Origin: a virus
IMG/VR virus record: IMGVR_UViG_3300047496_000021
Location: 1-50,246 of that record
DNA length: 50,246 nucleotides
Reading direction: 5' to 3' (one strand)
The notes under the pieces were generated by a model, which searched no databases, was not told the origin of the DNA, and saw only the letters and a program-made list of their open reading frames with translations. This document shows, piece by piece, positions 2,563-50,246 of the stretch. The number at the start of each line of letters is the position of its first letter. Position 1 is the stretch's first letter. Both the position numbers and the translations under genes were made by a program.

Positions 2563-3155
2563 TCAGCCCCTCGCCGCGTTGAAGTTATCGACCGCTATGA
2601 TCTCCAGCATGTCGTAAAGGTCCATAATACCATAGACCGTCTGCAATTCATGCAACGTCGCGAGCCGATGACTGACTACCGTTCCAATGGCTTGAGGCGT
2701 ATTCGCATACCGGACGAAGGCGGCGACTTCGATGTCTCGGCTTGCTCTTCGCCCGGCTCCGCTGAGATTGAGCGGGCGCCGGGTATCGAAAAACCCGTAT
2801 GGAGTTCAAAGACCTCCGCTCGCAATCGAAGCCGGTTCGCAACGTCCTCAATATCCGAGGCCACAAGACCTCGAATTCCGGCGGTGGTCTTGAATTGAAC
2901 ACACGCAAACATCTCATCAAGCAAAGGTTCAAGATATTCAAAATCCATGCCTCCTAACGCCTTGAAGCCAATGGACGCCACGCCCGCTAAACCACGCTCG
3001 GCGATGTCGTCGGGAATATCGACGCCCGATTTGGCAAGACCAAGAAATGCCTTGATCGCCCACTTTTCAGCGGCCTCGGCGGACATTTCGGTGATGAAGT
3101 AGGTCTTGGCGTCGCCCCGATCCTGAAGCGTGACCTCGCGCGTGCGGCGGCCCAC
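2563..3155 (-). CDS. Tail assembly chaperone, -1 frameshift fusion product (G-T type; 3155->2790 then re-read from 2790->2563, about 197 aa)
   Basis: The -1 frame opens just upstream of the slip site. It runs 75 codons (FDTRRPLNLS...ATLHELQTVYGIMDLYDMLEIIAVDNFNAARG) to a TGA at 2563-2565, 1 nt before the tape-measure GTG. Confidence 0.7.
2676..3155 (-). CDS. Tail assembly chaperone (G-type, zero-frame product)
   Basis: 159-aa ORF between the tube and tape-measure genes. Contains the slippery site GGGTTTT. Confidence 0.75.
   Translation of the reverse strand: MGRRTREVTLQDRGDAKTYFITEMSAEAAEKWAIKAFLGLAKSGVDIPDDIAERGLAGVASIGFKALGGMDFEYLEPLLDEMFACVQFKTTAGIRGLVASDIEDVANRLRLRAEVFELHTGFSIPGARSISAEPGEEQAETSKSPPSSGMRIRLKPLER
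2790..2796 (-). promoter_or_regulatory. Programmed -1 ribosomal frameshift heptamer G GGT TTT
   Basis: The minus strand reads cat acg ggt ttt tcg in the zero frame, which fits the X XXY YYZ pattern. Confidence 0.7.
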
Positions 3156-3157
3156 GG

Positions 3158-3604
3158 TCAGGCGCTCGGGCTAATGGCGCACTGTCCGAAGGCGACGCCC
3201 CACGACCGGGGCTGCAACACCTTCTGAGCCGTGGGAACTGGGCTCGCCTTCATGAGATAGCCTTGCGTCAAGGTATAGATTGTGGACGTGGCCGGAAGCG
3301 AGATGGTGAGCGAGCACGGCAAGACTTGCGGGCCCTCACGTTCGGTGTTCGCCCACGTCTCAAAGATCGGCACGGAAAGGCTCGACGCCAGAAACTTGAA
3401 ATCAATCTCGACCGGCACAAACACGAAGCCCGCTGTCAGCACGCCGTCCGCGCCGAATTGCAGTTCCTTGTTCGTGATGTCGGGCACATCAAACATCTGA
3501 TCGGGCGCGAAACCCTGAAGCTGTTGCGGCGAATCATACAGCGTCGGCACGGTCAGCATGACCACCGCATTGGCGCTTGTGACTGTGCGATAGGTGACGG
3601 CCAT
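3158..3604 (-). CDS. Tail tube protein (DUF3277-like, as recalled)
   Basis: 148 aa directly downstream of the sheath gene and upstream of the chaperone; 1-nt overlap TAATG. Confidence 0.65.
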   Translation of the reverse strand: MAVTYRTVTSANAVVMLTVPTLYDSPQQLQGFAPDQMFDVPDITNKELQFGADGVLTAGFVFVPVEIDFKFLASSLSVPIFETWANTEREGPQVLPCSLTISLPATSTIYTLTQGYLMKASPVPTAQKVLQPRSWGVAFGQCAISPSA

Positions 3605-5532
3605 TAGATGATCTCCAGCGACGCAAGCGTGATCTGTTGGATCGACTGGCCGTCAGTGTATAAAAAGATCATCGTCGGTGGCCCTCGCTGCCCCCTCACC
3701 GTCGCGCCGGGATCGCCAATGAAGAGATACCAGCCATTGACCTGCACTGCCGCCGGCGCCCCCTGAACGCCCGTGAGCGCCACCACTTCCGCCGCTTCCG
3801 TCGCTGATAGCTTCACACCCGTGCGAATGGCGCCAAAGTTGATGGCTTGCTGAATGGCGGGCGACAAGGCTTGTGCCAGCATCCCATAGCCCTGCGCGTT
3901 GTAAGGCACGGACTTTACGGAAACGAGGAACGACAGAAGCGTGATTTGGAAGAGGTTGTTCATCCAAATCTGATTGTAATAGGAGTCCGCCCATGCGAAC
4001 GGGCCGGTGCAGAAACCTTGGGCGAAGAAATTCTCTGTCGTCGCGCCGCTGGACGAGCTGACATAGCAGCTATAGCCGTTGGCCGTGATATTCGAATACG
4101 ACTGACCGCCCGTCACGCCGGGCACGAGGCCGCTCTGCGTCGTATAGGCTAAATCCGTGCGGCCACCCTGTGCGGTGAAATTGAGGCTTGCCGCATAACC
4201 GCATACCGCCGCCGCGATGCTTTCGTCCGATGGCTCCCAAAGCGGGATGCAGCCTGAGATATTCGCCTGGATGATCGCGTATCCCGCGCTCTGTGTCGCC
4301 GGAACCGTCGTGGTGACAGTTACGTCGGTGTCCCACATCACATAGGCGAAGCGGTTCGGATAGGTGTTGAGCCACTGGGCAAAAAGGATTTTGTCGCCCG
4401 TCACCGGATTAAACGCCGTCATATACGACGCCCAGTTCGTGGTGATGGCGTAAATCCCGTTCATGGCCGTTGTTGGCGTCATCTGCGCCGCGCCTTGGCT
4501 CAAGGTCGCGCTTGTCGCCGCCGTCAGGCCAAGACCCGTCGTCAGGCTGTTGGTGGTCGGATAGGCGACGCTGGACGAAGCCGACAGGAATGTTGAAGCG
4601 ATGACAAAGCCGCCGGACACGCTGTCATAAGCCACGGTCCATGCCGAATTGACGAGCGTGCCAGAGGTCACCGTTTGAGACCCGCTGACGACGTAGGTTC
4701 CCGCCGCGCCGGCGCCGGTGATCAAGCCCGTGACAACCGTATTAGCCGCCGTCGTCGAGCCCGTAATGGTCGAGCCGACCGCCAGAACGCCCGTGGGCGT
4801 GCCCGTGACTGTGAGGATACCCGAGGCCGCCGCCGCCGCTCCGGTGATGCCGCTGGCGACCGTCTGGCTTACGGAGACCACGTAAGTCCCGGAAGAGCCC
4901 GCCGTGCCCGTCAGTTGCGAGACAATGGTTGTATTGGCCGCGACGCCGCCGCCGCTCAAGACCTGCCCTGGGAACAACGCGCCCGCGCTGACAGTCGCCG
5001 TTAGGGTCGTGCCAGCAATCGCGCCCGCGCTGAGCGTGGCCGTGCCGGGGGCGATTGAACCGGTGAAAGACCCATCCGCGCCGGCAAGGGCCGTGGCGAT
5101 GAGCGTGGCCGCATTGCTGAACGAGGTCGCCGCGGCAAGGTTGATGGCGCTCGACGTCACCGTCACACCGTCGATGGTGATAGTGATTGTGCCAGATAGG
5201 GCCTGAAGCTGGGCGATGGTCAGGGACGAGACGTTCCCGCCCCTGATATAAGCCGCCACCGCGCCCGCGCCCGTATATTGGTAGAACAGAATCGCGCCGG
5301 GTTTCGCGAGGGAATTGTCCGGGCCCTGAAAGTAGGTCTGCGCGATTGAGGCTTCCGTCGAGCCTGCGCCGAAATAGGCCGCGACCGCCGCATAGGACGA
5401 AAAGCTCGGAACCGTGCCGATGGGAACGCGCGTATTGCGGGTCAGCACGACGGCGATGAGGTCAACAGCGGTCCCACCCGCGCCCAAGACGCCAGGGATG
5501 ACATTGACGAATAGAGAGGCGGGAACGCTCAT
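3604..5532 (-). CDS. Tail sheath protein (DUF3383-like, as recalled) with two inserted ~40-aa surface modules
   Basis: 642 aa. The N terminus MSVPASLFVNVIPGVLGAGG...AILFYQY matches the sheath family remembered as DUF3383. Position is upstream of the tube gene. Confidence 0.7.
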   Translation of the reverse strand: MSVPASLFVNVIPGVLGAGGTAVDLIAVVLTRNTRVPIGTVPSFSSYAAVAAYFGAGSTEASIAQTYFQGPDNSLAKPGAILFYQYTGAGAVAAYIRGGNVSSLTIAQLQALSGTITITIDGVTVTSSAINLAAATSFSNAATLIATALAGADGSFTGSIAPGTATLSAGAIAGTTLTATVSAGALFPGQVLSGGGVAANTTIVSQLTGTAGSSGTYVVSVSQTVASGITGAAAAASGILTVTGTPTGVLAVGSTITGSTTAANTVVTGLITGAGAAGTYVVSGSQTVTSGTLVNSAWTVAYDSVSGGFVIASTFLSASSSVAYPTTNSLTTGLGLTAATSATLSQGAAQMTPTTAMNGIYAITTNWASYMTAFNPVTGDKILFAQWLNTYPNRFAYVMWDTDVTVTTTVPATQSAGYAIIQANISGCIPLWEPSDESIAAAVCGYAASLNFTAQGGRTDLAYTTQSGLVPGVTGGQSYSNITANGYSCYVSSSSGATTENFFAQGFCTGPFAWADSYYNQIWMNNLFQITLLSFLVSVKSVPYNAQGYGMLAQALSPAIQQAINFGAIRTGVKLSATEAAEVVALTGVQGAPAAVQVNGWYLFIGDPGATVRGQRGPPTMIFLYTDGQSIQQITLASLEII

Positions 5533-21168: not shown

Positions 21169-21903
21169 ATGGCAACCCTAACCGCCGACCTCGCCTTTGA
21201 CCGTTATAGCGCCTTCTATGAGCGCGACGCCTTGGTCCAATCCTCATGGCATTCCAGAGATGCCGATGGCCGCGAACTGGCCTGCGGGCTCGGCGCACTT
21301 GATCCGGAGATCAATTCGGCCGCCGATTGCCCGTCGTCGGTCATGCCTCGCTGGCTGGCGCAAATGGTCCCTTGGTTTTTCGATAACCAGCCGTTTGACG
21401 ACGCTAAGGGTTGGGGGCTGGCGTTCTACGCCGAACTAAAGCGCCTCAAGGGCGCCGTGCCTTTTTCCGTCGTTCACGACTGGCAGGCCACTATCGTCGG
21501 CCCAATGAACGTCGAGATTTGCGAGGCGCCGGGCTGGGACGCCGCGTTGCCCCTGGCCGTTCAGCGCCTCCATGAGCGTGCCCTGGCCGGGGACCTAGCC
21601 CCCCGCGACGAATGGTTCGCGGCGCTCAAGCCGTCTCTGCAACAGGCTTACAGAAAGCGATACGCCGACGCCTACGCCTACGCCAACGCCTACGCCGACG
21701 CCCACGCCAACGCCAACGCCTACGCCTACGCCGACGCCCACGCCAACGCCAACGCCTACGCCGACGCCCACGCCAACGCCTACGCCTACGCCAACGCCAA
21801 CGCCAACACCTACACCAACCCCGACACCTACAAACAGCATGTCAAGCGATTGGCGTCTGGAATGGTCGAATGCCTCAAGCGCGTTCCGACGCCAGAAGCC
21901 TAA
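21169..21903 (+). CDS. Cys-motif domain protein with a (Y/D/H/N)-Ala dipeptide array; paralogue of 34408..35265
   Basis: 244 aa, SD gaggagattgaaat. Shares LVQSSWH, ELAC.LGA and DCP...MP.WLA with the second copy. Confidence 0.75.
21661..21831 (+). repeat. Hexanucleotide coding array NACGCC x24 (perfect to 21804) plus degenerate units
   Basis: Read directly: tacgcc gacgcc tacgcc tacgcc aacgcc ... Only the first base of each unit varies. Confidence 0.9.
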
Positions 21904-24009: not shown

Positions 24010-24360
24010 TTATCCTGCCAGCGGCTCCGAGCCACGACCCCCGGCGCGTACACGGCGTCGGGGGTTTTTCGTTTCCCACGCCGCTTTCTCGCGTTCGGCA
24101 CTCTCGCCAGCCTCAACCTCCGCGACCAGATCCCCCAAATCATCCGCCAGCTCGCGCACGTAATCCGCCGCAAACTCTAGCCCACCGCCGGCAATGAGCG
24201 CCCGCACATGGGCCTGAATTAGCGCGAAATGCCCCTCACGTCGTGGTCGCCAATCGCTGAACGCCTCCACGACCTGGCGCGCGAGAATGTCGGCAGTCAG
24301 TGCGTCGGCGGCGTCAAGGCTGGCGTCGGCGCGGGTCCAGAGATCGTCCCACGGCGTCAT
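24010..24360 (-). CDS. Hypothetical protein
   Basis: 116 aa, ATGA-coupled to the gcrA stop; its 3' end overlaps the plus-strand terminator hairpin. Confidence 0.5.
   Translation of the reverse strand: MTPWDDLWTRADASLDAADALTADILARQVVEAFSDWRPRREGHFALIQAHVRALIAGGGLEFAADYVRELADDLGDLVAEVEAGESAEREKAAWETKNPRRRVRAGGRGSEPLAG
24037..24069 (+). terminator. Rho-independent terminator ending the first rightward block
   Basis: A 9-bp stem cccccggcg / cgtcggggg (one G-U pair), a 9-nt loop, then ttttt at 24065-24069. Confidence 0.7.
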
Positions 24361-24953
24361 GCGTAACGACGGGCCAGTTTCTCCAGATCGCGGGCTTTTC
24401 GCGGGGCTTCCGGCTTATAGGCTATCGCCGCATGGGCCACACAGTAGCTCGCGCCCTCACCTTTGACCGGCGCGCAACACGACAGCATGTCCTCACCCTC
24501 GCCAATCGGCCATGCGCATTCGCCGTAACCGCGCGTGAGGAAATGCCGGGGTTCTACAGGCCCGTCAGCCGCAACGCTCAGCTGCGGCGGCGTTGGCGCA
24601 CGTCTTGGCCCGGCCACGCGCCACGGCGTCACGGTCGCTTGCGTGGACCTCGCAACGTCGATCTCGCGCGGGCGTGAGGGTTTCACAACCACCGGCTTCG
24701 CAGATTTCATAGCATCAATCTCAACCGGACGGCGCTTGGGCTGCACACGCGGCTGACGCTGCACCTTATCCGGGTCAGTCGGCACGACACGGTGCGACAT
24801 GCCCAGCCGGTGAATCTTGCCGATCACGCCATTACGCGTGCAACCGCCTATCGCCCGCGCGATTTGGCTGCACGATAGGCCCTCGATCCATAATCGCTTC
24901 AGCTCGTCGACGCGCTCGTCAGTCCAGCCGGTCGGTGTGTCTGTGATGTTCAT
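24357..24953 (-). CDS. gcrA: GcrA-family cell-cycle regulator homologue
   Basis: Start trimmed to the ATG at 24953. N terminus WTDERVDELKRLWIEGLSCSQIARAIGGCTRNGVIGKIHRLG. C terminus CAWPIGEGEDMLSCCAPVKGEGASYCVAHAAIAYKP. Confidence 0.9.
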   Translation of the reverse strand: MNITDTPTGWTDERVDELKRLWIEGLSCSQIARAIGGCTRNGVIGKIHRLGMSHRVVPTDPDKVQRQPRVQPKRRPVEIDAMKSAKPVVVKPSRPREIDVARSTQATVTPWRVAGPRRAPTPPQLSVAADGPVEPRHFLTRGYGECAWPIGEGEDMLSCCAPVKGEGASYCVAHAAIAYKPEAPRKARDLEKLARRYA

Positions 24954-24972
24954 GGCGCCCCTCCTTGGCGGT

Positions 24973-26004
24973 TTATGCGGTGAGCAAAAGCTCCCTTTGC
25001 GACGTCTCAGCGCCAATCTGCGCGATGTTTTTCACCGCCTGCGCGTAATATGACGGCTTAAGCTCAATGCCGATTCCGCGCCGGCCCATTTCCACGGCGG
25101 CAAACACTTCGGACCCAATGCCCAAAAACGGCGTCAAAACCGTCTCACCCTTGATGCTCCAAAGATCAATGCAGCGTTCAATGACGTCCAGTTGGAGCGG
25201 GGAAATGTGAACCTCATCTTTGGCGTCGCGACCGCCGCGATATTGGAGCGTGCGCGTCTGGCGAATATCGCTCCACACGGGCGAGGCGTAGCGTTGCCAT
25301 ACCATGATTGAGAGCCATGTTTCATAGGGCCAATGATCCAACTTATCGCCGCCGTTAGCGATAACTTCGGCGTCACGGCGCTTGCAATCGGCTTCGTAGC
25401 CATCGCGGCTCACATCAAGACTTTCGTCACCAACCCATTGTGTAAGACCGCCGCTGATCGCCGTATCGTTATCGCCGGGCTTGCGGAAGGTAACGACGTA
25501 GTCAGCGAGCCCCTGCCCGCTCATGGCCGAATCCTTGACTAACTGTTTGTGCAGTAAGCGAAGCGATTTCGTGCGCTGCTGGGCGACAACCGGGTCTTTC
25601 CAGATGCAGACTTCGCTATGAAAATGCCACCCGCAATCCTGCCAAAGCTGAATGATCTCCCCGCGAAAATCCCTCATGCCGACATAGCCGTCACGCCCCT
25701 TATTGCGGGGTAATTGCATGACGTGAACACTGGCCAAGCGCCCCGGCTTGGTCACGCGAAGCATTTCCTGAATGAGAAACGCATAGTGCGAGTTGAAATC
25801 GTCGCCCTCGCTGTTGCTCATGTCGCGGTCATAGGCGGAAAATTTATAAAGCCCGCTGAACGGAGGCGAGTGAATGCTGAAATGAATAGTGTCGCTTCCA
25901 ATCCCGCGAATGACTTCGCAGCTATCACCTTGATAAATTGCATAATCGTCCGTGATCAATTGATCGACCACCTTGACGTCATCCGACACCTTCACGCGGC
26001 CCAT
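24973..26004 (-). CDS. DNA methyltransferase, beta-class N4/N6 family
   Basis: Motif IV is HSPPF near the N terminus and motif I is TPFLGIGSE near the C terminus. Confidence 0.85.
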   Translation of the reverse strand: MGRVKVSDDVKVVDQLITDDYAIYQGDSCEVIRGIGSDTIHFSIHSPPFSGLYKFSAYDRDMSNSEGDDFNSHYAFLIQEMLRVTKPGRLASVHVMQLPRNKGRDGYVGMRDFRGEIIQLWQDCGWHFHSEVCIWKDPVVAQQRTKSLRLLHKQLVKDSAMSGQGLADYVVTFRKPGDNDTAISGGLTQWVGDESLDVSRDGYEADCKRRDAEVIANGGDKLDHWPYETWLSIMVWQRYASPVWSDIRQTRTLQYRGGRDAKDEVHISPLQLDVIERCIDLWSIKGETVLTPFLGIGSEVFAAVEMGRRGIGIELKPSYYAQAVKNIAQIGAETSQRELLLTA

Positions 26005-27374
26005 GCGGGGATCTCCATTTTCTGCGTCGGATTGTAATTGGGTTTTTCTCGCACTTGGCCGCGAATGGCTTTCGACGAAAAATCCTGCGTGTGCTTGATC
26101 ATGGCCGCCATCATGCGGTCCGCGTCGGCCTCTTTGCGGCGAAGGTTTAGCGCGACATTGCCCTCAGTCTCAGCGGCGATCAAATGCGCTTCAACGGGCT
26201 TTGTCTGGCCAAAGCGCCAAAACCGACGCACGGCTTGATAATATTGTTCCCAGCTATCATTGAGGCCAATAAATCCCGTGTGATGGCAATGCTGCCAATT
26301 AAGACCGAATCCCGCCACCTTGGCTTTGGTGGTCAGAACGCGAATGCTTCCATCAGCGAACGCGCGCAGCTTGCGGATTTTCTCCTCGTCGCTATCGGAG
26401 CCCTTTGTTTCGACAGCGCCCTTGATCAACGACGTGACCATTTCGGATTCAGTGTTGAGGTTACACCACCAGACAAACGGCCCATCGGTTGGCGTGATTT
26501 CGACGGCCTTCCGCACCCGATCCTCAACGGTCGCCCGCCTCGCCGCGATGCGCTCGCTCAAGGTTTCTGCAGGAAGCGCGAACAACATCCCGGCTTGGTG
26601 CGCCGCTTGGTGATCGACCGCCACATTATGCTGAATGACATTTAGGGGCGGCAGGTCGTAACCATCATCCGAATAGCCAAGATCGGACGGTTTGCGAAGC
26701 ATGACGGCCCATGACGCCATCCACTTCCAGAATTCATTCTCGGCGTGGCCCTTGAGCCGCCACTTTTGCGTCTCACCGCCGTCGTGCGTGAAGAATGTCG
26801 CCAGCATATCCGTGTAGGACATAACGCCTAAGAACTCGGCGTGATTGCCAAGCTCCATGAAGTCGTTAGGCGCCGGCGTCGCAGTGGCCGCGAGGCGAAA
26901 CGGTATTTTCTGACATTCAGCAATGAGCCGCGTTCGATAATGGCCGTCTGTGGATTTCAAAATTGACGACTCGTCCAGAATGACGCCGCCAAAGCGCGAC
27001 AAATCGAAATGATCGAGCTTTTGAAAGTTGGTGATGTTGTTTCCCGCGACGCATTCGGATTGATCGCGAACATGACGCGCGATGAGGCCGAATTTGTTGG
27101 CCTCCTGCATCATCTGATCGGTAACGGCTAACGGCGCCAGATGCAGAATATCGCGGCCCGTTTCGCGGTGAACCGCATCGGCCCACGCTAATTCTTGGAG
27201 GGATTTACCTAGCCCCGTTCCTTCAAACAGGGCCGCTCGACCGCGCTTCAACGCCCATTCGGTTATGTCGCGCTGAAACGGAAACATGATTGACGGAAGG
27301 CCATCAAATTTCGTGAGGCCGGTCGAATGGTCGATTATCGCCTTGGTGGCGAGAAAATCCTCATAAGCCCCCAT
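25992..27374 (-). CDS. SNF2-family helicase/ATPase
   Basis: Start trimmed to the ATG at 27374 (MGAYEDF). Motifs GTGLGKS, ILDESS, QAVRRFWRFGQ. Confidence 0.85.
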   Translation of the reverse strand: MGAYEDFLATKAIIDHSTGLTKFDGLPSIMFPFQRDITEWALKRGRAALFEGTGLGKSLQELAWADAVHRETGRDILHLAPLAVTDQMMQEANKFGLIARHVRDQSECVAGNNITNFQKLDHFDLSRFGGVILDESSILKSTDGHYRTRLIAECQKIPFRLAATATPAPNDFMELGNHAEFLGVMSYTDMLATFFTHDGGETQKWRLKGHAENEFWKWMASWAVMLRKPSDLGYSDDGYDLPPLNVIQHNVAVDHQAAHQAGMLFALPAETLSERIAARRATVEDRVRKAVEITPTDGPFVWWCNLNTESEMVTSLIKGAVETKGSDSDEEKIRKLRAFADGSIRVLTTKAKVAGFGLNWQHCHHTGFIGLNDSWEQYYQAVRRFWRFGQTKPVEAHLIAAETEGNVALNLRRKEADADRMMAAMIKHTQDFSSKAIRGQVREKPNYNPTQKMEIPAWAA

Positions 27375-27514
27375 CACACCCTCCCCCGCCACCGCGACAC
27401 CGTAGACGGATCAACGCCCCACCTGCGCGCCGCCTCCGCATTCGTGGTCCGACGCGCAAGAGCGACGATAATGTCACGGATCGCGGGTGAGATGGGTGGA
27501 CGGCCAACGGTCAT
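27374..27514 (-). CDS. Small helix-turn-helix protein (46 aa, below the ORF-track cutoff)
   Basis: MTVGRPPISPAIRDIIVALARRTTNAEAARRWGVDPSTVSRWRGRV. ATGA-coupled upstream, 1-nt overlap downstream. Confidence 0.5.
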   Translation of the reverse strand: MTVGRPPISPAIRDIIVALARRTTNAEAARRWGVDPSTVSRWRGRV

Positions 27515-27711
27515 GGCGTGCGCTCGTAGGTCACCACGCGCTTGAGGCCGAGCGCGGCTAAAATCACGTCACCAGGCACGCGCCGACCCGTCATCACGTC
27601 GTGCAGATAGCCGTTCGACACGCCCAGTTGGCGGGCCCATCGCGCTCCATACCCGTCCGCCGTTTCAATTATGGCGCGGTTGATCAGTTGGCGCACTTCG
27701 TCCTCATTCAT
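27511..27711 (-). CDS. Cro/CI-type helix-turn-helix regulator
   Basis: 66 aa, WARQLGVSNGYLHDVMTGRRVPG. First gene of the leftward module, next to the divergent control region. Confidence 0.65.
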   Translation of the reverse strand: MNEDEVRQLINRAIIETADGYGARWARQLGVSNGYLHDVMTGRRVPGDVILAALGLKRVVTYERTP

Positions 27712-28271: not shown

Positions 28272-28652
28272 TTGGATATCAACGGATTAACGCTAGGCCA
28301 GATGCGAGAGATTGCGAAAGTCGTCCAAGGCATCGACGGCAACACCGACCGCGCCCCCAGCGCGTCGCATGATGCTATTCCCGTCGTCGTGTGCACCGAC
28401 AAGCGCGGCGTCGTGTTCGGTTACTGCGAGAACACCAACGCGCGACCCATCACGCTCACCAAGGCCCGTATGTGCCTGTATTGGTCATCGGATGTCGGCG
28501 GCGTGTTCGGCCTCGGCGAGCGCGGCCCGTCCAAAGATTCCAAGGTGTCGGCGGTGTTGGCGTCAATCACGCTGGAAGGCGTCACGGCAATTTTCAGCGT
28601 CGATCCCATCGCTGAAATGGCGTGGAACACCGCAAAAGTCCAAGGCCAATAA
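28272..28652 (+). CDS. Hypothetical protein
   Basis: 126 aa, TTG start 7 nt after gaaggag. Confidence 0.6.
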   Translation: MDINGLTLGQMREIAKVVQGIDGNTDRAPSASHDAIPVVVCTDKRGVVFGYCENTNARPITLTKARMCLYWSSDVGGVFGLGERGPSKDSKVSAVLASITLEGVTAIFSVDPIAEMAWNTAKVQGQ

Positions 28653-28653
28653 C

Positions 28654-28932
28654 ATGTCCCGCATGATTTTTGGAGAGACAACGGAAATCTACGGCGACGG
28701 CTACGGCTACGGCTACGGCTACGGCGACGGCCACGGCTACGGCGACGGCGACGGCGACGGCTACGGCGACGGCCACGGCTACGGCGACGGCGACGGCCAC
28801 GGCTACGGCTACGGCGACGGCTACGGCTACGGCCACGGCGACGGCCACGGCTACGGCTACGGCGACGGCTACGGCTACGGCCACGGCTACGGCGACGGCG
28901 GCGGCGGCGGCGACGGCTCAAACGTAACCTAA
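28654..28932 (+). CDS. Gly-Tyr-Asp-His dipeptide-array protein
   Basis: 92 aa made of MSRMIFGETTEI, then 38 (Y/D/H/G)-Gly units, then SNVT. The ATG is 2 nt after the upstream stop. Confidence 0.6.
   Translation: MSRMIFGETTEIYGDGYGYGYGYGDGHGYGDGDGDGYGDGHGYGDGDGHGYGYGDGYGYGHGDGHGYGYGDGYGYGHGYGDGGGGGDGSNVT
28690..28917 (+). repeat. Hexanucleotide coding array NACGGC x38 (two units are GGCGGC)
   Basis: Read directly: tacggc gacggc tacggc ... cacggc ... Confidence 0.9.
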
Positions 28933-29752: not shown

Positions 29753-29858
29753 TAAAATCTTCATTTGGGTCAACGGCGCCAGAACGTCGCTGACCGATTT
29801 AGCCGCGATGAATAAGCCTTTCCAGAGGAAGAACTATTATGACCATCTTCTACTATAA
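29742..29858 (+). CDS. Possible small protein (38 aa)
   Basis: ATG preceded by aagggaggaaccacta; overlaps both neighbours. Confidence 0.3.
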   Translation: MHPDKIFIWVNGARTSLTDLAAMNKPFQRKNYYDHLLL

Positions 29859-30516
29859 TGGCCTTATCCAAGGTTCCGACGAATGGCTTGAGGCCCGTCG
29901 CGGTTTGCTGACTGCCAGCGAAATGAAACACATCATTACGCCGACACTGAAGATCGCCGACAACGACAAGTCGCGCTCACACCTTTACGAGCTTCTCGCC
30001 CAGCGGATCAGCGGTCATGTCGAACCATCTTACATCGGCGACGATATGTTGCGCGGGCTGGAAGATGAAGAGTTCGCGCTCACACTTTACAACGAGAAGA
30101 TCGCACCCGTCGAACGCTGCGGATTTGTGACGAATAATCGTTGGGGTTTTACGCTTGGATGCAGCCCAGATGGCTTGGTCAGTTCGGACGGCGCGATTGA
30201 AGTCAAATCGCGGCGCCAGAAATTCCAGATCGCCACCATTATCAATGGCGAAATGCCTGACGATTACGCCATTCAGGTTCAGACAATCCTTTTGGTGACC
30301 GAACGCGCGTGGTGCGATTTCGTCAGCTACTCAAACGGCCTTCCGATGGCGCGCATCCGGGTTTTGCCTGACGCGCAAATTCAAGAGGCCATCGTCACGG
30401 CGGCGACGGCGTTTGAGGCCAAGCTTGCCGAGAAGTGGACAGCCTACAACGCCAATCTCGCGACCAATCGACGGCTAATCCCGACCGAGCGGCGCGTTGT
30501 GCAGGAGATGTTTTGA
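29839..30516 (+). CDS. YqaJ-type (lambda Exo-like, PD-(D/E)XK) recombination exonuclease
   Basis: GSDEWLEARRGLLTASEMKHI at the N terminus, CSPDGLV...IEVKSR. Confidence 0.85.
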   Translation: MTIFYYNGLIQGSDEWLEARRGLLTASEMKHIITPTLKIADNDKSRSHLYELLAQRISGHVEPSYIGDDMLRGLEDEEFALTLYNEKIAPVERCGFVTNNRWGFTLGCSPDGLVSSDGAIEVKSRRQKFQIATIINGEMPDDYAIQVQTILLVTERAWCDFVSYSNGLPMARIRVLPDAQIQEAIVTAATAFEAKLAEKWTAYNANLATNRRLIPTERRVVQEMF

Positions 30517-33528: not shown

Positions 33529-34415
33529 AAATCTATCTCGCCGCGCGTTACAGCCGCCACCCGGAAATGCGGATTGTCCGCGCTCACTTGGAGGGTATGG
33601 GCTATGAAGTCACAAGCCGATGGATCAATGGCGGTCACGAATGGATCAATGGCGGTCACGAATTGACCAAAGAGGGTTCAACTGAGGGCCACGAAGCGGA
33701 GCGCATACGATACGCCGAAGAGGATGTCGCCGACCTACGCGCCGCCGATATCGTAATCTCATTCACCGAAGAGCCTCGCAAGACCACTACGCGGGGCGGA
33801 CGTCATGTTGAGTTTGGGATGGCGCTCGCGCTTGGCAAGTCTGTCTATGTCGTCGGCTGGCGCGAGAACGTCTTTCACACCCTCCCAACAGTCAGGTTTT
33901 TCAAGACCACGCGCGAATGCTTGCTCGCCTTAAAAAAAAACCCGCCCGGAGGGGATGCGGTCTTGTCGGCTCCGGGGCCAGATATTCCCAAGACGATATA
34001 CAAGGCCGTTGAGCGCGTCCTTGACGAGAACAGCGCGTGGATAGCCCGGCCCAATGCAGAGGTAACAAAGCGGGTTGCCTTGGCAGCGGGAATAGCGTGG
34101 TCACTCCACACGGAAAAGGACCGGGGAGATTCCACCACCACCGAGGCGGGGGCCAGTTGGCCTACGGATGAGGACGTGGAGCGGGCGCGCGAGGTTTTGC
34201 AGGCGTCCTGTCCTGAATATGTCGAGGGCGACGTTTGCCGGGATTGTGATCTTGTTCACGGCTGCCGATCCGTCTCGCGCGCCGCCCTCATCGCCGCCGG
34301 CCCTCCCGCCACGCCTGGACAGCGTGGCGCGCCAGCGGGCGCAGCTGCAGGCCCTGCGCGCCTGACCTTTGCCGTTCCCTTTTTCTCTCAACCCAAGGAG
34401 CATGACCATGAGTGA
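33525..34415 (+). CDS. Nucleoside 2-deoxyribosyltransferase-like domain protein with an unknown C-terminal half
   Basis: MKIYLAARYSRHPEM...ADIVISFTEE...GGRHVEFGMALALGKSVYVVG. Contains a 21-bp tandem duplication and an A9 run. Confidence 0.6.
   Translation: MKIYLAARYSRHPEMRIVRAHLEGMGYEVTSRWINGGHEWINGGHELTKEGSTEGHEAERIRYAEEDVADLRAADIVISFTEEPRKTTTRGGRHVEFGMALALGKSVYVVGWRENVFHTLPTVRFFKTTRECLLALKKNPPGGDAVLSAPGPDIPKTIYKAVERVLDENSAWIARPNAEVTKRVALAAGIAWSLHTEKDRGDSTTTEAGASWPTDEDVERAREVLQASCPEYVEGDVCRDCDLVHGCRSVSRAALIAAGPPATPGQRGAPAGAAAGPARLTFAVPFFSQPKEHDHE
33621..33662 (+). repeat. Perfect 21-bp tandem duplication (tggatcaatggcggtcacgaa x2), in frame (WINGGHE x2)
   Basis: Read directly. Confidence 0.95.
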
Positions 34416-35265
34416 CGTTCTTCAGATTGATCACGATTTCGCCGCCGACCGGATCGAGACGTTCGCCCGCGAGGGGCGCTTGGTGCAGTCGAGCTGGCAC
34501 GTTCCGGCCGACGGCGGCGAAGGCCAGGAATTGGCCTGCCTGCTAGGCGCGATCCACCCGGGCATTAATGCGACGTCCGATTGCCCGGCGGCGCTTATGC
34601 CCGCGTGGCTGGCTCGCCTGACGGTGCGGCTTTTCGACGGCCTTCCGGCAGAACGCACAGTGGAATTTGGCCTCGCCTATGGCCAGCGCGTGCGGCGTTG
34701 GCGCGTGATCGATGAGGCGGGGTGGGAGCGCGCGCGGCGCGCTTTTATCACCGAAGCTATGACCGGCGCCGTCGCGCGGTGGCGCGAGAAAGGCGGAGAG
34801 GCGTCTCCTTTGTGGGCGGCGGTGACAAATCTCCATGACCGCGTCACTGCGGGCCTTCTGTCCGGCGCTCTGACGCGGCCGGCCTGGGCCAAATTGCGGT
34901 CGGAAGGCTGGGCGCTACGCGACAAGGCTTGGAACGCTTACTGGTCCGCTCGCCGGCGCGCGGCGGCGGAGGCGGTGGCGGCGGTGGTGGCGGTGGCGGA
35001 GGCGGAGGCGGTGGCGGAGGCGGAGGCGGAGGCGGCGGAGGCGGTGGCGGAGGCGGTGGCGGAGGCGGAGGCGGAGGCGGTGGAGGCGGTGGCGGCGGTG
35101 TCGGTGGCTCGCCGAGAGAGTTATGCCCGGTCGTTCGATACGCTGCTGCGCGTGCTCGACGTGGAAATCGCGGAAGAAGCGGTCGGGGTTGTCGAAAGTC
35201 GCTGTCCCGATTGTGATCCCGTAGCGCGATTTCAGTCTGAAACGGAAGGCCTAAACGATGAATAG
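34408..35265 (+). CDS. Cys-motif domain protein with an (E/V/A)-Ala array; paralogue of 21169..21903
   Basis: ATG 34408, 7 nt after aaggag. Shares LVQSSWH, ELACLLGA and DCPAALMPAWLA with the other copy. Confidence 0.7.
   Translation: MSDVLQIDHDFAADRIETFAREGRLVQSSWHVPADGGEGQELACLLGAIHPGINATSDCPAALMPAWLARLTVRLFDGLPAERTVEFGLAYGQRVRRWRVIDEAGWERARRAFITEAMTGAVARWREKGGEASPLWAAVTNLHDRVTAGLLSGALTRPAWAKLRSEGWALRDKAWNAYWSARRRAAAEAVAAVVAVAEAEAVAEAEAEAAEAVAEAVAEAEAEAVEAVAAVSVARRESYARSFDTLLRVLDVEIAEEAVGVVESRCPDCDPVARFQSETEGLNDE
34960..35106 (+). repeat. GNG-GCG coding array (mostly hexameric, some irregular units)
   Basis: gcg gag gcg gtg gcg gcg gtg ... read directly. Open in several frames on both strands. 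Confidence 0.85.
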
Positions 35266-49953: not shown

Positions 49954-50246
49954 GGCGGCACATAGGCGGCTATGGGATTGACGCCATCATAGGACAGAAA
50001 ATAGCCACCGCCCGCATTGACGATAAGCGTATTGGGGTCAAACGCCCCAGCCTGCGCTTGCGTGATGGCTCCCGTCAGATCCGCGTCGGAGCCGTAAATC
50101 AACTGATAGCGCGTGCCGAGACCCGTATAATATGGGTCACTGTCGCCTTGAGTGTCGAAGAACGCGAGGTTTCCGACGAAGGCAATATAATCGGCGCGCT
50201 TGAGCCGAATGAGGTTGAGCGCTAACACGCCGCCAAGGATGAGTAT
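49950..50246 (-). CDS. C-terminal part of the wrap-around baseplate-module gene (same gene as 1..274)
   Basis: Stop at 49950-49952. The frame is open to the contig end. Bases 50120-50246 duplicate 1-127. Confidence 0.7.
   Translation of the reverse strand: MLILGGVLALNLIRLKRADYIAFVGNLAFFDTQGDSDPYYTGLGTRYQLIYGSDADLTGAITQAQAGAFDPNTLIVNAGGGYFLSYDGVNPIAAYVPP
50120..50246. repeat. Terminal direct repeat, second copy of 1-127
   Basis: Identical sequence. Confidence 0.95.

Follow-up and report, generated by a model that had tools for sequence, protein, structure and literature searches.

In the eukaryotic proteins SmD1 and SmD3, which carry Gly-Arg repeats, and in LSm4, which carries an RGG/prion-like region, the Sm fold is joined to a repetitive Gly-X tail that serves multivalent interactions and granule assembly. 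These tails are basic (Arg) and are fused to the core, whereas the chain described here, which is encoded by a phage, is acidic and aromatic and has a gene of its own. The gene (28654..28932, + strand) lies in the viral record IMGVR_UViG_3300047496_000021, of which the whole stretch of 50,246 nucleotides (nt) was analyzed (the window), and it encodes a 92-residue protein that is almost entirely an X-Gly dipeptide repeat. It directly follows a gene for a DUF6948 protein, which is predicted to be a small beta-barrel with an Sm/LSm-like fold, and the same two genes stand side by side in nearly all of the relatives that could be evaluated.

A further parallel is Hfq of Acinetobacter baumannii, in which an Sm core is followed by GGFGGQ repeats and an acidic tip, with both the repeat number and the tip mattering for RNA binding and autoregulation (PMC11617691). 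The phage pair resembles this Hfq in its putative small Sm-type barrel, in a Gly/aromatic-rich repetitive chain that is predicted to be disordered, in a short acidic end motif and in its variable repeat number. It differs in that the phage chain is a separate, apparently coupled polypeptide and not a C-terminal extension, in that the repeat is a strict X-Gly dipeptide rich in Asp, Ser and Tyr, and in that DUF6948 has no sequence match to Hfq/LSm models, its RNA binding being only putative. GoF, MotB.1 and Frd.2 of T4 are LSm-like early proteins that were recognized by structure prediction alone (PMC12152347); like DUF6948 they are small, early, uncharacterized phage proteins that are LSm-like by structure prediction only, but they have no shown sequence relation to DUF6948, and none of them has a reported repeat partner.

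The chain itself recalls the [G/S]Y[G/S] domains of FUS and hnRNP proteins in its Tyr/Ser/Gly composition, its predicted disorder and its aromatic 'stickers' spaced by Gly, but it keeps a strict period of two, has ∼22% Asp (34% in the window), is not built on Gln/Asn and forms a tiny stand-alone protein. In silk fibroin heavy chain, too, there are long stretches in which each alternate residue is Gly; in the phage protein, however, X is Tyr/Ser/Asp and not Ala/Ser, the protein is acidic and intracellular, and no beta structure is predicted. Ralstonia phage NK-7, a cultured carrier of the pair, has its repeat protein annotated as a 'fibroin heavy chain-like protein', a label that reflects composition, not homology. 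An earlier reading of the window made from its letters alone (the sequence-only reading) knew of no described phage function for such a protein, and literature searches likewise found none: no paper was found on DUF6948, on DUF7666 (a family related to a domain described below) or on phage dipeptide-repeat proteins of the X-Gly type, and no curated family covering the repeat protein was found in Pfam, PHROGs, NCBIfam or PADLOC. Each component taken singly, the Sm-like barrel as well as the Gly/Tyr low-complexity chain, is of a kind already known; the X-Gly family and its obligate linkage to DUF6948 appear to be undescribed, and have gone unnoticed because extreme low-complexity phage proteins are usually dismissed as annotation noise and because they break short-read assemblies.

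The open reading frame (ORF), hexamer count and encoded sequence given in the sequence-only reading were all borne out by the window. The gene runs from an ATG at 28654-28656 to a TAA at 28930-28932, and its translation consists of an N-terminal peptide MSRMIFGETTEI (28654..28689), the array YGDGYGYGYGYGDGHG...GDGGGGGDG (28690..28917) and the tail SNVT (28918..28929), the two ends corresponding to the heads and tails of the family. The array comprises exactly 38 hexamers of the NACGGC type (TACGGC x17, GACGGC x13, CACGGC x6 and GGCGGC x2), which encode (Tyr17/Asp13/His6/Gly2)-Gly. Variation among the NACGGC units is confined to base 1 of the hexamer, synonymous variation is absent, and the probability of 36 such units in succession arising by chance is ∼1e-99 (50 kb, window base composition). 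Tandem Repeats Finder reported a period of 6 with 38.3 copies, and a 24-nt higher-order period scored better. The encoded protein has an isoelectric point (pI) of 4.06 and a net charge of about -14, and an AlphaFold2 model of it (predicted local distance difference test score, pLDDT, 39.8; no secondary structure) is consistent with disorder, a single-sequence run being weak evidence. The exact 92-residue product had no record in an exact-protein look-up, and the four family collections gave nothing meaningful for it, with sub-threshold compositional matches only (TrAA12, serine-rich protein, sulfur globule protein (SGP) and keratin head). A promoter/terminator scan around the gene was uninformative.

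We examined 176 DUF6948 loci from IMG/VR, from JGI, ENA and Logan metagenomes, from metagenome-assembled genomes (MAGs), from cultured phages and from a distant subfamily, and 166 of these had enough sequence downstream of DUF6948 to be evaluable. An X-Gly array ORF lies directly downstream and on the same strand at 163 of the 166. The sequence-only reading had named an absent or out-of-frame array in close relatives as the observation that would tell against it, and in these 163 relatives the array is present in the X-Gly frame. The positive loci hold 146 different arrays next to 140 different DUF6948 proteins, and the linkage spans clades with 24-60% DUF6948 identity. In the first relatives obtained (59-60% DUF6948 identity) the downstream gene encodes MAKLLQGTAEEF followed by (Y/S/D/E/C-G)n and SVV. 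At the other end, a large distant subfamily marked by 'VTTxHRGVFFGY' (366 IMG/VR loci) is bona fide DUF6948, as all 55 sampled members match PF22253, which was their sole sequence-family match. Three loci depart from this pattern: L077 has a degenerate Gly/Tyr-rich ORF, L191 is an unclear case, and in L084 the downstream ORF (∼2880-3240) has a 7-residue repeat, L-[SY]-G-[ND]-V-T-[GY], in place of X-Gly.

The linkage was also seen in the reciprocal direction. When X-Gly proteins were collected purely by similarity or composition to the 92-residue query and their neighbors were then inspected, P0148 and P0188 were found directly 3' of a DUF6948 gene, and a weak DUF6948-like ORF (11 bits) lay directly 3' of P0127, a DUF7666-X-Gly protein. 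Clustering of the flanking ORFs in 99 non-redundant loci revealed nothing conserved beyond the pair itself, and its contexts vary: it stands beside repressors, beside genes for single-stranded DNA-binding protein (SSB), Erf, RecT, Sak4-like proteins or PrimPol, or after terS. Besides NK-7, the cultured phages that carry the pair, and that are available for experiments, include the Pectobacterium phages Koroua, Ymer and Abuela with their relatives (annotated as hypothetical) and Iodobacter phage phiPLPE (L196, NC_011142), where the repeat gene is an unannotated ORF, MSRLVNNKNGDGSGYGDGYGYG...GSGSG, at ∼1160-1420 between gp84 and gp83. In tblastn searches of cultured phages the matches came from an L009-type DUF6948 query only; neither the window DUF6948 nor the distant P0280 gave a match, nor did a megablast of the window region. 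In L009 itself (∼3370-4020) the X-Gly ORF has another one behind it, which is preceded by a repeat of the last DUF6948 residues and may have arisen through tandem duplication of the gene.

The arrangement of the two genes suggests that they are translated together. The DUF6948 gene of the window (28272..28652, +; Pfam PF22253, E 5.6e-20) encodes 126 residues from a TTG at 28272, which was taken as the start because the N-terminus MDINGLTLGQ aligns with homologs. Its TAA (28650-28652) is 1 base from the ATG at 28654, in agreement with the tight packing noticed from the sequence alone, and in relatives the two genes are separated by a few nt or overlap. A Shine-Dalgarno-like AAGG (28642..28645, +) lies in the last DUF6948 codons, 8 nt before the repeat-gene ATG, and may serve its translation; in relatives the codons of the conserved DUF6948 C-terminus ...VQGR (CAGGGNCG) supply AGGG at an equal distance. 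A conserved frameshift or read-through uniting both genes was considered and rejected, as the frame offset differs between loci. In L002 (4585-4625) and L003 (4455-4495) a GC-rich hairpin with a T-run (GGGGAGGGCTTCGGTCCTCCCC TTCTCTTTTT) lies directly 3' of the repeat gene and looks like an intrinsic terminator that would close a two-gene unit; the window has no equivalent of it.

The composition of the family was counted across the 4,234 units of the 146 distinct arrays. X is Tyr in 38.5% of units, Ser in 28.3%, Asp in 21.9%, Phe in 2.7%, Asn in 1.8%, His in 0.6%, Cys in 0.6% and Lys plus Arg together in 0.6%, and the second position is Gly in 97.8%; the mean charge is -0.12 per residue. The window array fits this pattern in being a long (X-Gly)n with almost no basic or aliphatic X, and is atypical in having His in place of Ser: His makes up 16% of X in the window against 0.6% in the family, so the metal binding through His (and Asp) that the sequence-only reading had envisaged is, as far as His is concerned, not a family feature. 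The ends of the protein are conserved by clade. The N-terminal motif is M-x-K/R/A-hydrophobic-hydrophobic-x-G, with heads such as MAKLLQGTAEEF, MARILRGNESNL, MAEMIYGDKP, MAAMLFGEQP, VARLLSGAAE and ...VIRGELP.W corresponding to MSRMIFGETTEI, 'MAWGDTE' in a marine clade and '..IRG.hP.W' in the large subfamily. The tails are short runs of polar or acidic residues followed by [IV][VST] (EDVS, ESVA, ELVT, EIVA, EADIV, KEDIV, QDIIV, SVV), to which SNVT conforms.

Among the 146 arrays, 63 belong to minimal proteins of the window type (N-peptide, array, tail), 39 continue into a C-terminal domain of ∼110 residues, 7 have an N-terminal domain ahead of the array and 37 are incomplete, the contig ending before the ORF does. 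The ∼110-residue domain (AFWRS..G.P.NGG...GPL.LC...LHAT) has no Pfam or PHROG match; a profile-profile comparison with hhalign relates it to DUF7666 (probability 72%, E 3.5e-5). Since the arrays join the N-peptide either to the tail or to this domain, the array behaves as a tether between end elements. X-Gly sequence was also seen in a contig from another setting: L201 (1-5384; JGI Ga0668513_000197) holds a tandem run of at least 13 paralogues of ∼125 residues each, with no DUF6948 nearby. Each paralogue begins with an N-domain that is TIGR02996-like ('AADWLEE'), goes on with an X-Gly region that is variable and rich in Gly/Tyr/Asp, and has the hydrophobic sequence 'LLLFFASISQN' at its C-terminus.

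Selection on the array acts on the protein, because the codons used for Gly, Tyr and Ser differ between lineages and leave the other frames unconserved. Among the Gly codons GGC dominates in 124 arrays, GGG in 16, GGT in 5 and GGA in 1; Tyr is encoded by TAC in 106 arrays and by TAT in 39; and Ser is encoded by TCY in most arrays and by AGY in 19. The other two frames accordingly read TA, MA, TG or PA and RL, WL or RV depending on the lineage, and the X-Gly frame alone is constant. Differences from the dominant Gly codon of an array are synonymous in 215 cases and non-synonymous in 92, against an expectation of ∼1:2 under neutrality, although the definition of an array itself penalizes non-Gly residues. 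At the X position His and Cys, the transition neighbors of Tyr, are rare (0.6% each), whereas Ser and Asp, its transversion neighbors, are abundant. A diversity-generating retroelement (DGR) variable region was considered as the source of the variation and rejected: the complete 50-kb genome contains no second copy and no (AACGGC)n template, only three unrelated arrays, and the arrays of relatives vary at the second codon base too (TCT, TGT, TTT), unlike adenine-confined DGR variation.

The length of the chain is hypervariable. Complete arrays have 4 to 74 units (median 32), and unit number is not the same in phages that share a 100% identical DUF6948 protein (28 vs 23, 37 vs 33, 52 vs 35, 70 vs 74 and 37 vs 41), always in frame, as had been anticipated for a slippage-prone hexamer repeat. 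In L002 and L003 the flanks are near-identical and the array composition is different. Many short-read contigs break off within the array or directly behind it, among them L001, L010, L014, L016, L113 and many of L033-L193. Since they stop there, assembled lengths, including the 38 units of the window, may be inexact, and since assemblies break at the arrays, databases probably contain too few of them; in practice, many metagenomic phage contigs terminate within an X-Gly array.

The partner belongs to a large family. The window DUF6948 has 433 close homologs, every one of them unnamed, and a profile search returned 905 clusters at 50% identity (E <= 1e-3), whose members are almost all 90-135 residues long with the domain extending to the C-terminus. 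A confident AlphaFold2 model built with 54 homologs (pLDDT 84.8) predicted a helix (8-21) followed by a five-stranded barrel (strands 36-42, 47-52, 60-70, 91-101 and 104-109); two more helices are an additional one at 77-83 and one at the C-terminus. When this model was compared with the PDB by Foldseek, all of the top matches were Sm/LSm proteins, with marginal scores (E 1.5e-3 to 3e-2; template modeling (TM) score 0.4-0.66), and among viral predicted structures it matched further members of DUF6948 along with a few phage proteins of the 'Sm-like' kind. A search of PDB sequences with the DUF6948 profile gave nothing at E up to 10. DUF6948 is therefore predicted to be a small beta-barrel of Sm/LSm-like fold, and because no Sm, LSm or Hfq sequence model matches it we use the term for the fold and make no claim of membership. 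The DUF6948 proteins are usually basic (median pI 8.7; 61% above 8), whereas the minimal X-Gly proteins have a median pI of 4.05, i.e. the two show charge complementarity.

We tentatively favor the reading that the repeat protein is the trans-encoded, translationally coupled, disordered acidic/aromatic tail or tether of a phage Sm-like oligomer, which we hold to be quite possible, if somewhat short of probable. The repeat gene would be co-transcribed and translationally coupled with the upstream DUF6948 gene; DUF6948, as an Sm/LSm-like small beta-barrel, would probably oligomerize; and the conserved end peptides of the repeat protein would be docking or functional motifs, with the (Tyr/Ser/Asp-Gly)n chain between them forming an intrinsically disordered, acidic, aromatic tether or tail. 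The proposed function of the chain would rest on bulk composition and valency and not on exact sequence, so that unit number could drift freely by in-frame slippage. By analogy with Hfq, the chain may gate the usually basic DUF6948 surface through nucleic-acid mimicry, and/or it may cause the complex to self-associate in a multivalent manner at an early stage of infection. The physical interaction, the oligomerization, the nucleic-acid substrate and the biological role of the pair are all inferred. What stands regardless is a large family under clear protein-level selection, in which a repeat gene is tied to one partner only, of predicted Sm-like fold; if a complex does form, it would be a natural, minimal and genetically tractable system for asking how a repeat that is disordered and variable in valency might influence a small ring that binds nucleic acid, or promote condensation, in bacteria. 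In a bolder version, which strikes us as decidedly doubtful, tailed phages of many hosts carry a portable two-gene cassette that would build an assembly like a ribonucleoprotein (RNP) granule, with an Sm-like DUF6948 ring decorated in trans by FUS-like chains of tunable valency and the repeat number acting as a fast-evolving rheostat for condensation or nucleic-acid gating early in infection. If true, such a cassette would be the equivalent, in viruses of prokaryotes, of systems that combine LSm with prion-like domains.

Several observations weigh against a tethered Sm-like oligomer. The Sm-like assignment depends on Foldseek scores that are marginal even at their best (E 1.5e-3, TM 0.4-0.66), and no Sm, LSm or Hfq sequence model matches, with no LSM/Hfq hit at E up to 10 in the 55 sampled members. 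The window DUF6948 is not basic (pI 5.8 overall, 7.9 for the core). No genuine DUF6948-X-Gly fusion was present among the top 150 representative clusters; P0243 and P0369 were rejected as frameshifted gene calls enclosing the separate ORF. Repeats can collapse in metagenome assemblies, and it is from these that the array lengths were taken. Pectobacterium phage Koroua has the pair in the midst of tail genes on the opposite strand, which is behavior more like that of a mobile accessory cassette than of a core RNA or replication factor. Finally, X-Gly arrays exist without DUF6948, in TIGR02996-domain proteins, so that the chain is a portable physical module and not a ligand specific to DUF6948.

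In an alternative account, which takes up the self-association raised in the sequence-only reading, the (Tyr/Ser/Asp-Gly)n chain alone would form a condensate, a gel or a silk- or amyloid-like assembly that concentrates or sequesters factors in the infected cell, DUF6948 being a mere co-expressed neighbor or chaperone. The composition, which fits [G/S]Y[G/S]-type low-complexity domains, the predicted disorder (pLDDT 39.8) together with the variable valency, the occurrence of X-Gly arrays in other protein contexts and the weak compositional matches to Gly/Tyr-rich sulfur globule protein and keratin head models make such self-association a live hypothesis. However, a specific partner is favored by the linkage to DUF6948, which is 98%, as well as by the conservation of the end peptides, and the negative charge (-14 on 92 residues) opposes homotypic condensation unless a counter-ion or partner is present, so that we regard this account as unlikely, though by no means negligible. 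We consider it rather unlikely, too, that the pair is an arms-race cassette, in which the acidic aromatic chain would be a decoy or mimic (for instance one that imitates nucleic acid, or that competes as a substrate of, or inhibits, a nuclease, protease or defense sensor of the host), DUF6948 a co-factor and the hypervariability a product of diversifying selection. Such a cassette would explain why the pair is the sole conserved unit across unrelated contexts (next to the repressor in an early operon, behind terS, or within the tail genes on the opposite strand), why it has its own putative terminator in L002 and L003, and why near-identical phages differ in array composition and length; the chain is also strongly acidic, as known DNA mimics are. 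Known DNA mimics, however, are folded proteins, no PADLOC model or named anti-defense family matched, and slippage under relaxed constraint on the exact sequence explains the variability equally well.

Two further explanations concern the array itself. It is very improbable that the product is a metal-binding (His/Asp/Tyr) peptide or the precursor of a modified peptide resembling the ribosomally synthesized and post-translationally modified peptides (RiPPs): the 6 His and 13 Asp of the window protein are suggestive, but His is nearly absent from X across the family, the 99 non-redundant loci show no modifying enzyme conserved beside the pair, DUF6948 being the only conserved neighbor, and a leader/core organization is absent. 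Scarcely credible, in our judgment, is an array that acts at the level of DNA or RNA (as a slippage switch, an array of binding sites or a structured RNA) with an incidental peptide. The perfect hexamer period of the window array, its one variable base per unit, its lack of synonymous variation and the breaking of short-read assemblies by such arrays could be read in this way. Against it, the nucleotide unit changes between lineages (GGCTAC, GGCTAT, GGGTAC, GGTAGT ...) while the X-Gly reading stays constant, and the array does not behave as an on/off switch, because the indels between phages with identical DUF6948 are always in frame. Its RNA fold is no better than that of shuffled sequences (z = 0.45), and neither an Rfam match nor inverted repeats within the array were found. 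The tethered-oligomer reading remains the best supported of these.

The window is a complete circular or terminally redundant genome of ∼50.1 kb, because positions 1-127 and 50120-50246 form an exact 127-nt terminal overlap; its GC content is 59.7%. The repeat gene belongs to a rightward early operon that adjoins a divergent cI-like helix-turn-helix (HTH) gene (27511-27711, -), and a YqaJ-type exonuclease gene (29839-30516) lies downstream of it. To the left of the repressor-like gene, 24357-27392 (-) encodes a GcrA-like regulator, a CcrM-type N6/N4 methyltransferase and a helicase, as labeled by Pfam on the identical Logan contig L001. GcrA/CcrM-like genes are cell-cycle-type regulators typical of phages of Alphaproteobacteria, and the nearest relatives come from Rhizobiales and Novosphingobium MAGs, which together indicate an alphaproteobacterial host.

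The genome holds two more in-frame hexamer arrays, at 21661-21831 (NACGCC) and 34960-35108 (GCGGNG). The first encodes a (Tyr/Asp/Asn/His)-Ala array in a 244-residue protein (21169-21903, +), where a Cys-containing N-domain precedes it and 'KRLAxGMVECLxRV', which is conserved, follows at the C-terminus. This protein has 72 homologs, all hypothetical and from Alphaproteobacteria, and no Pfam or PHROG family, its sole match being a weak one to ZorG (E 1.2e-3). Homology of the N-domain of the (X-Ala)n proteins of the window to the 'GAC' N-domains that are fused to X-Gly arrays was considered and rejected (hhalign probability 0.1%). All but three of its 16 IMG/VR relatives, the three being cut by contig ends, have a (Y/D/N-A)n array, and the lengths differ. 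The second array lies in a paralogue of the 244-residue protein (34369-35265, +; 36% identity over the N-domain, E 2e-22), in which an Ala-(Glu/Val/Ala) array of GCGGNG hexamers occupies the equivalent place. All three arrays of the window (21661-21831, 28690-28917 and 34960-35108) vary at essentially one nt per hexamer, with no synonymous variation, which suggests recent expansion or homogenization by slippage.

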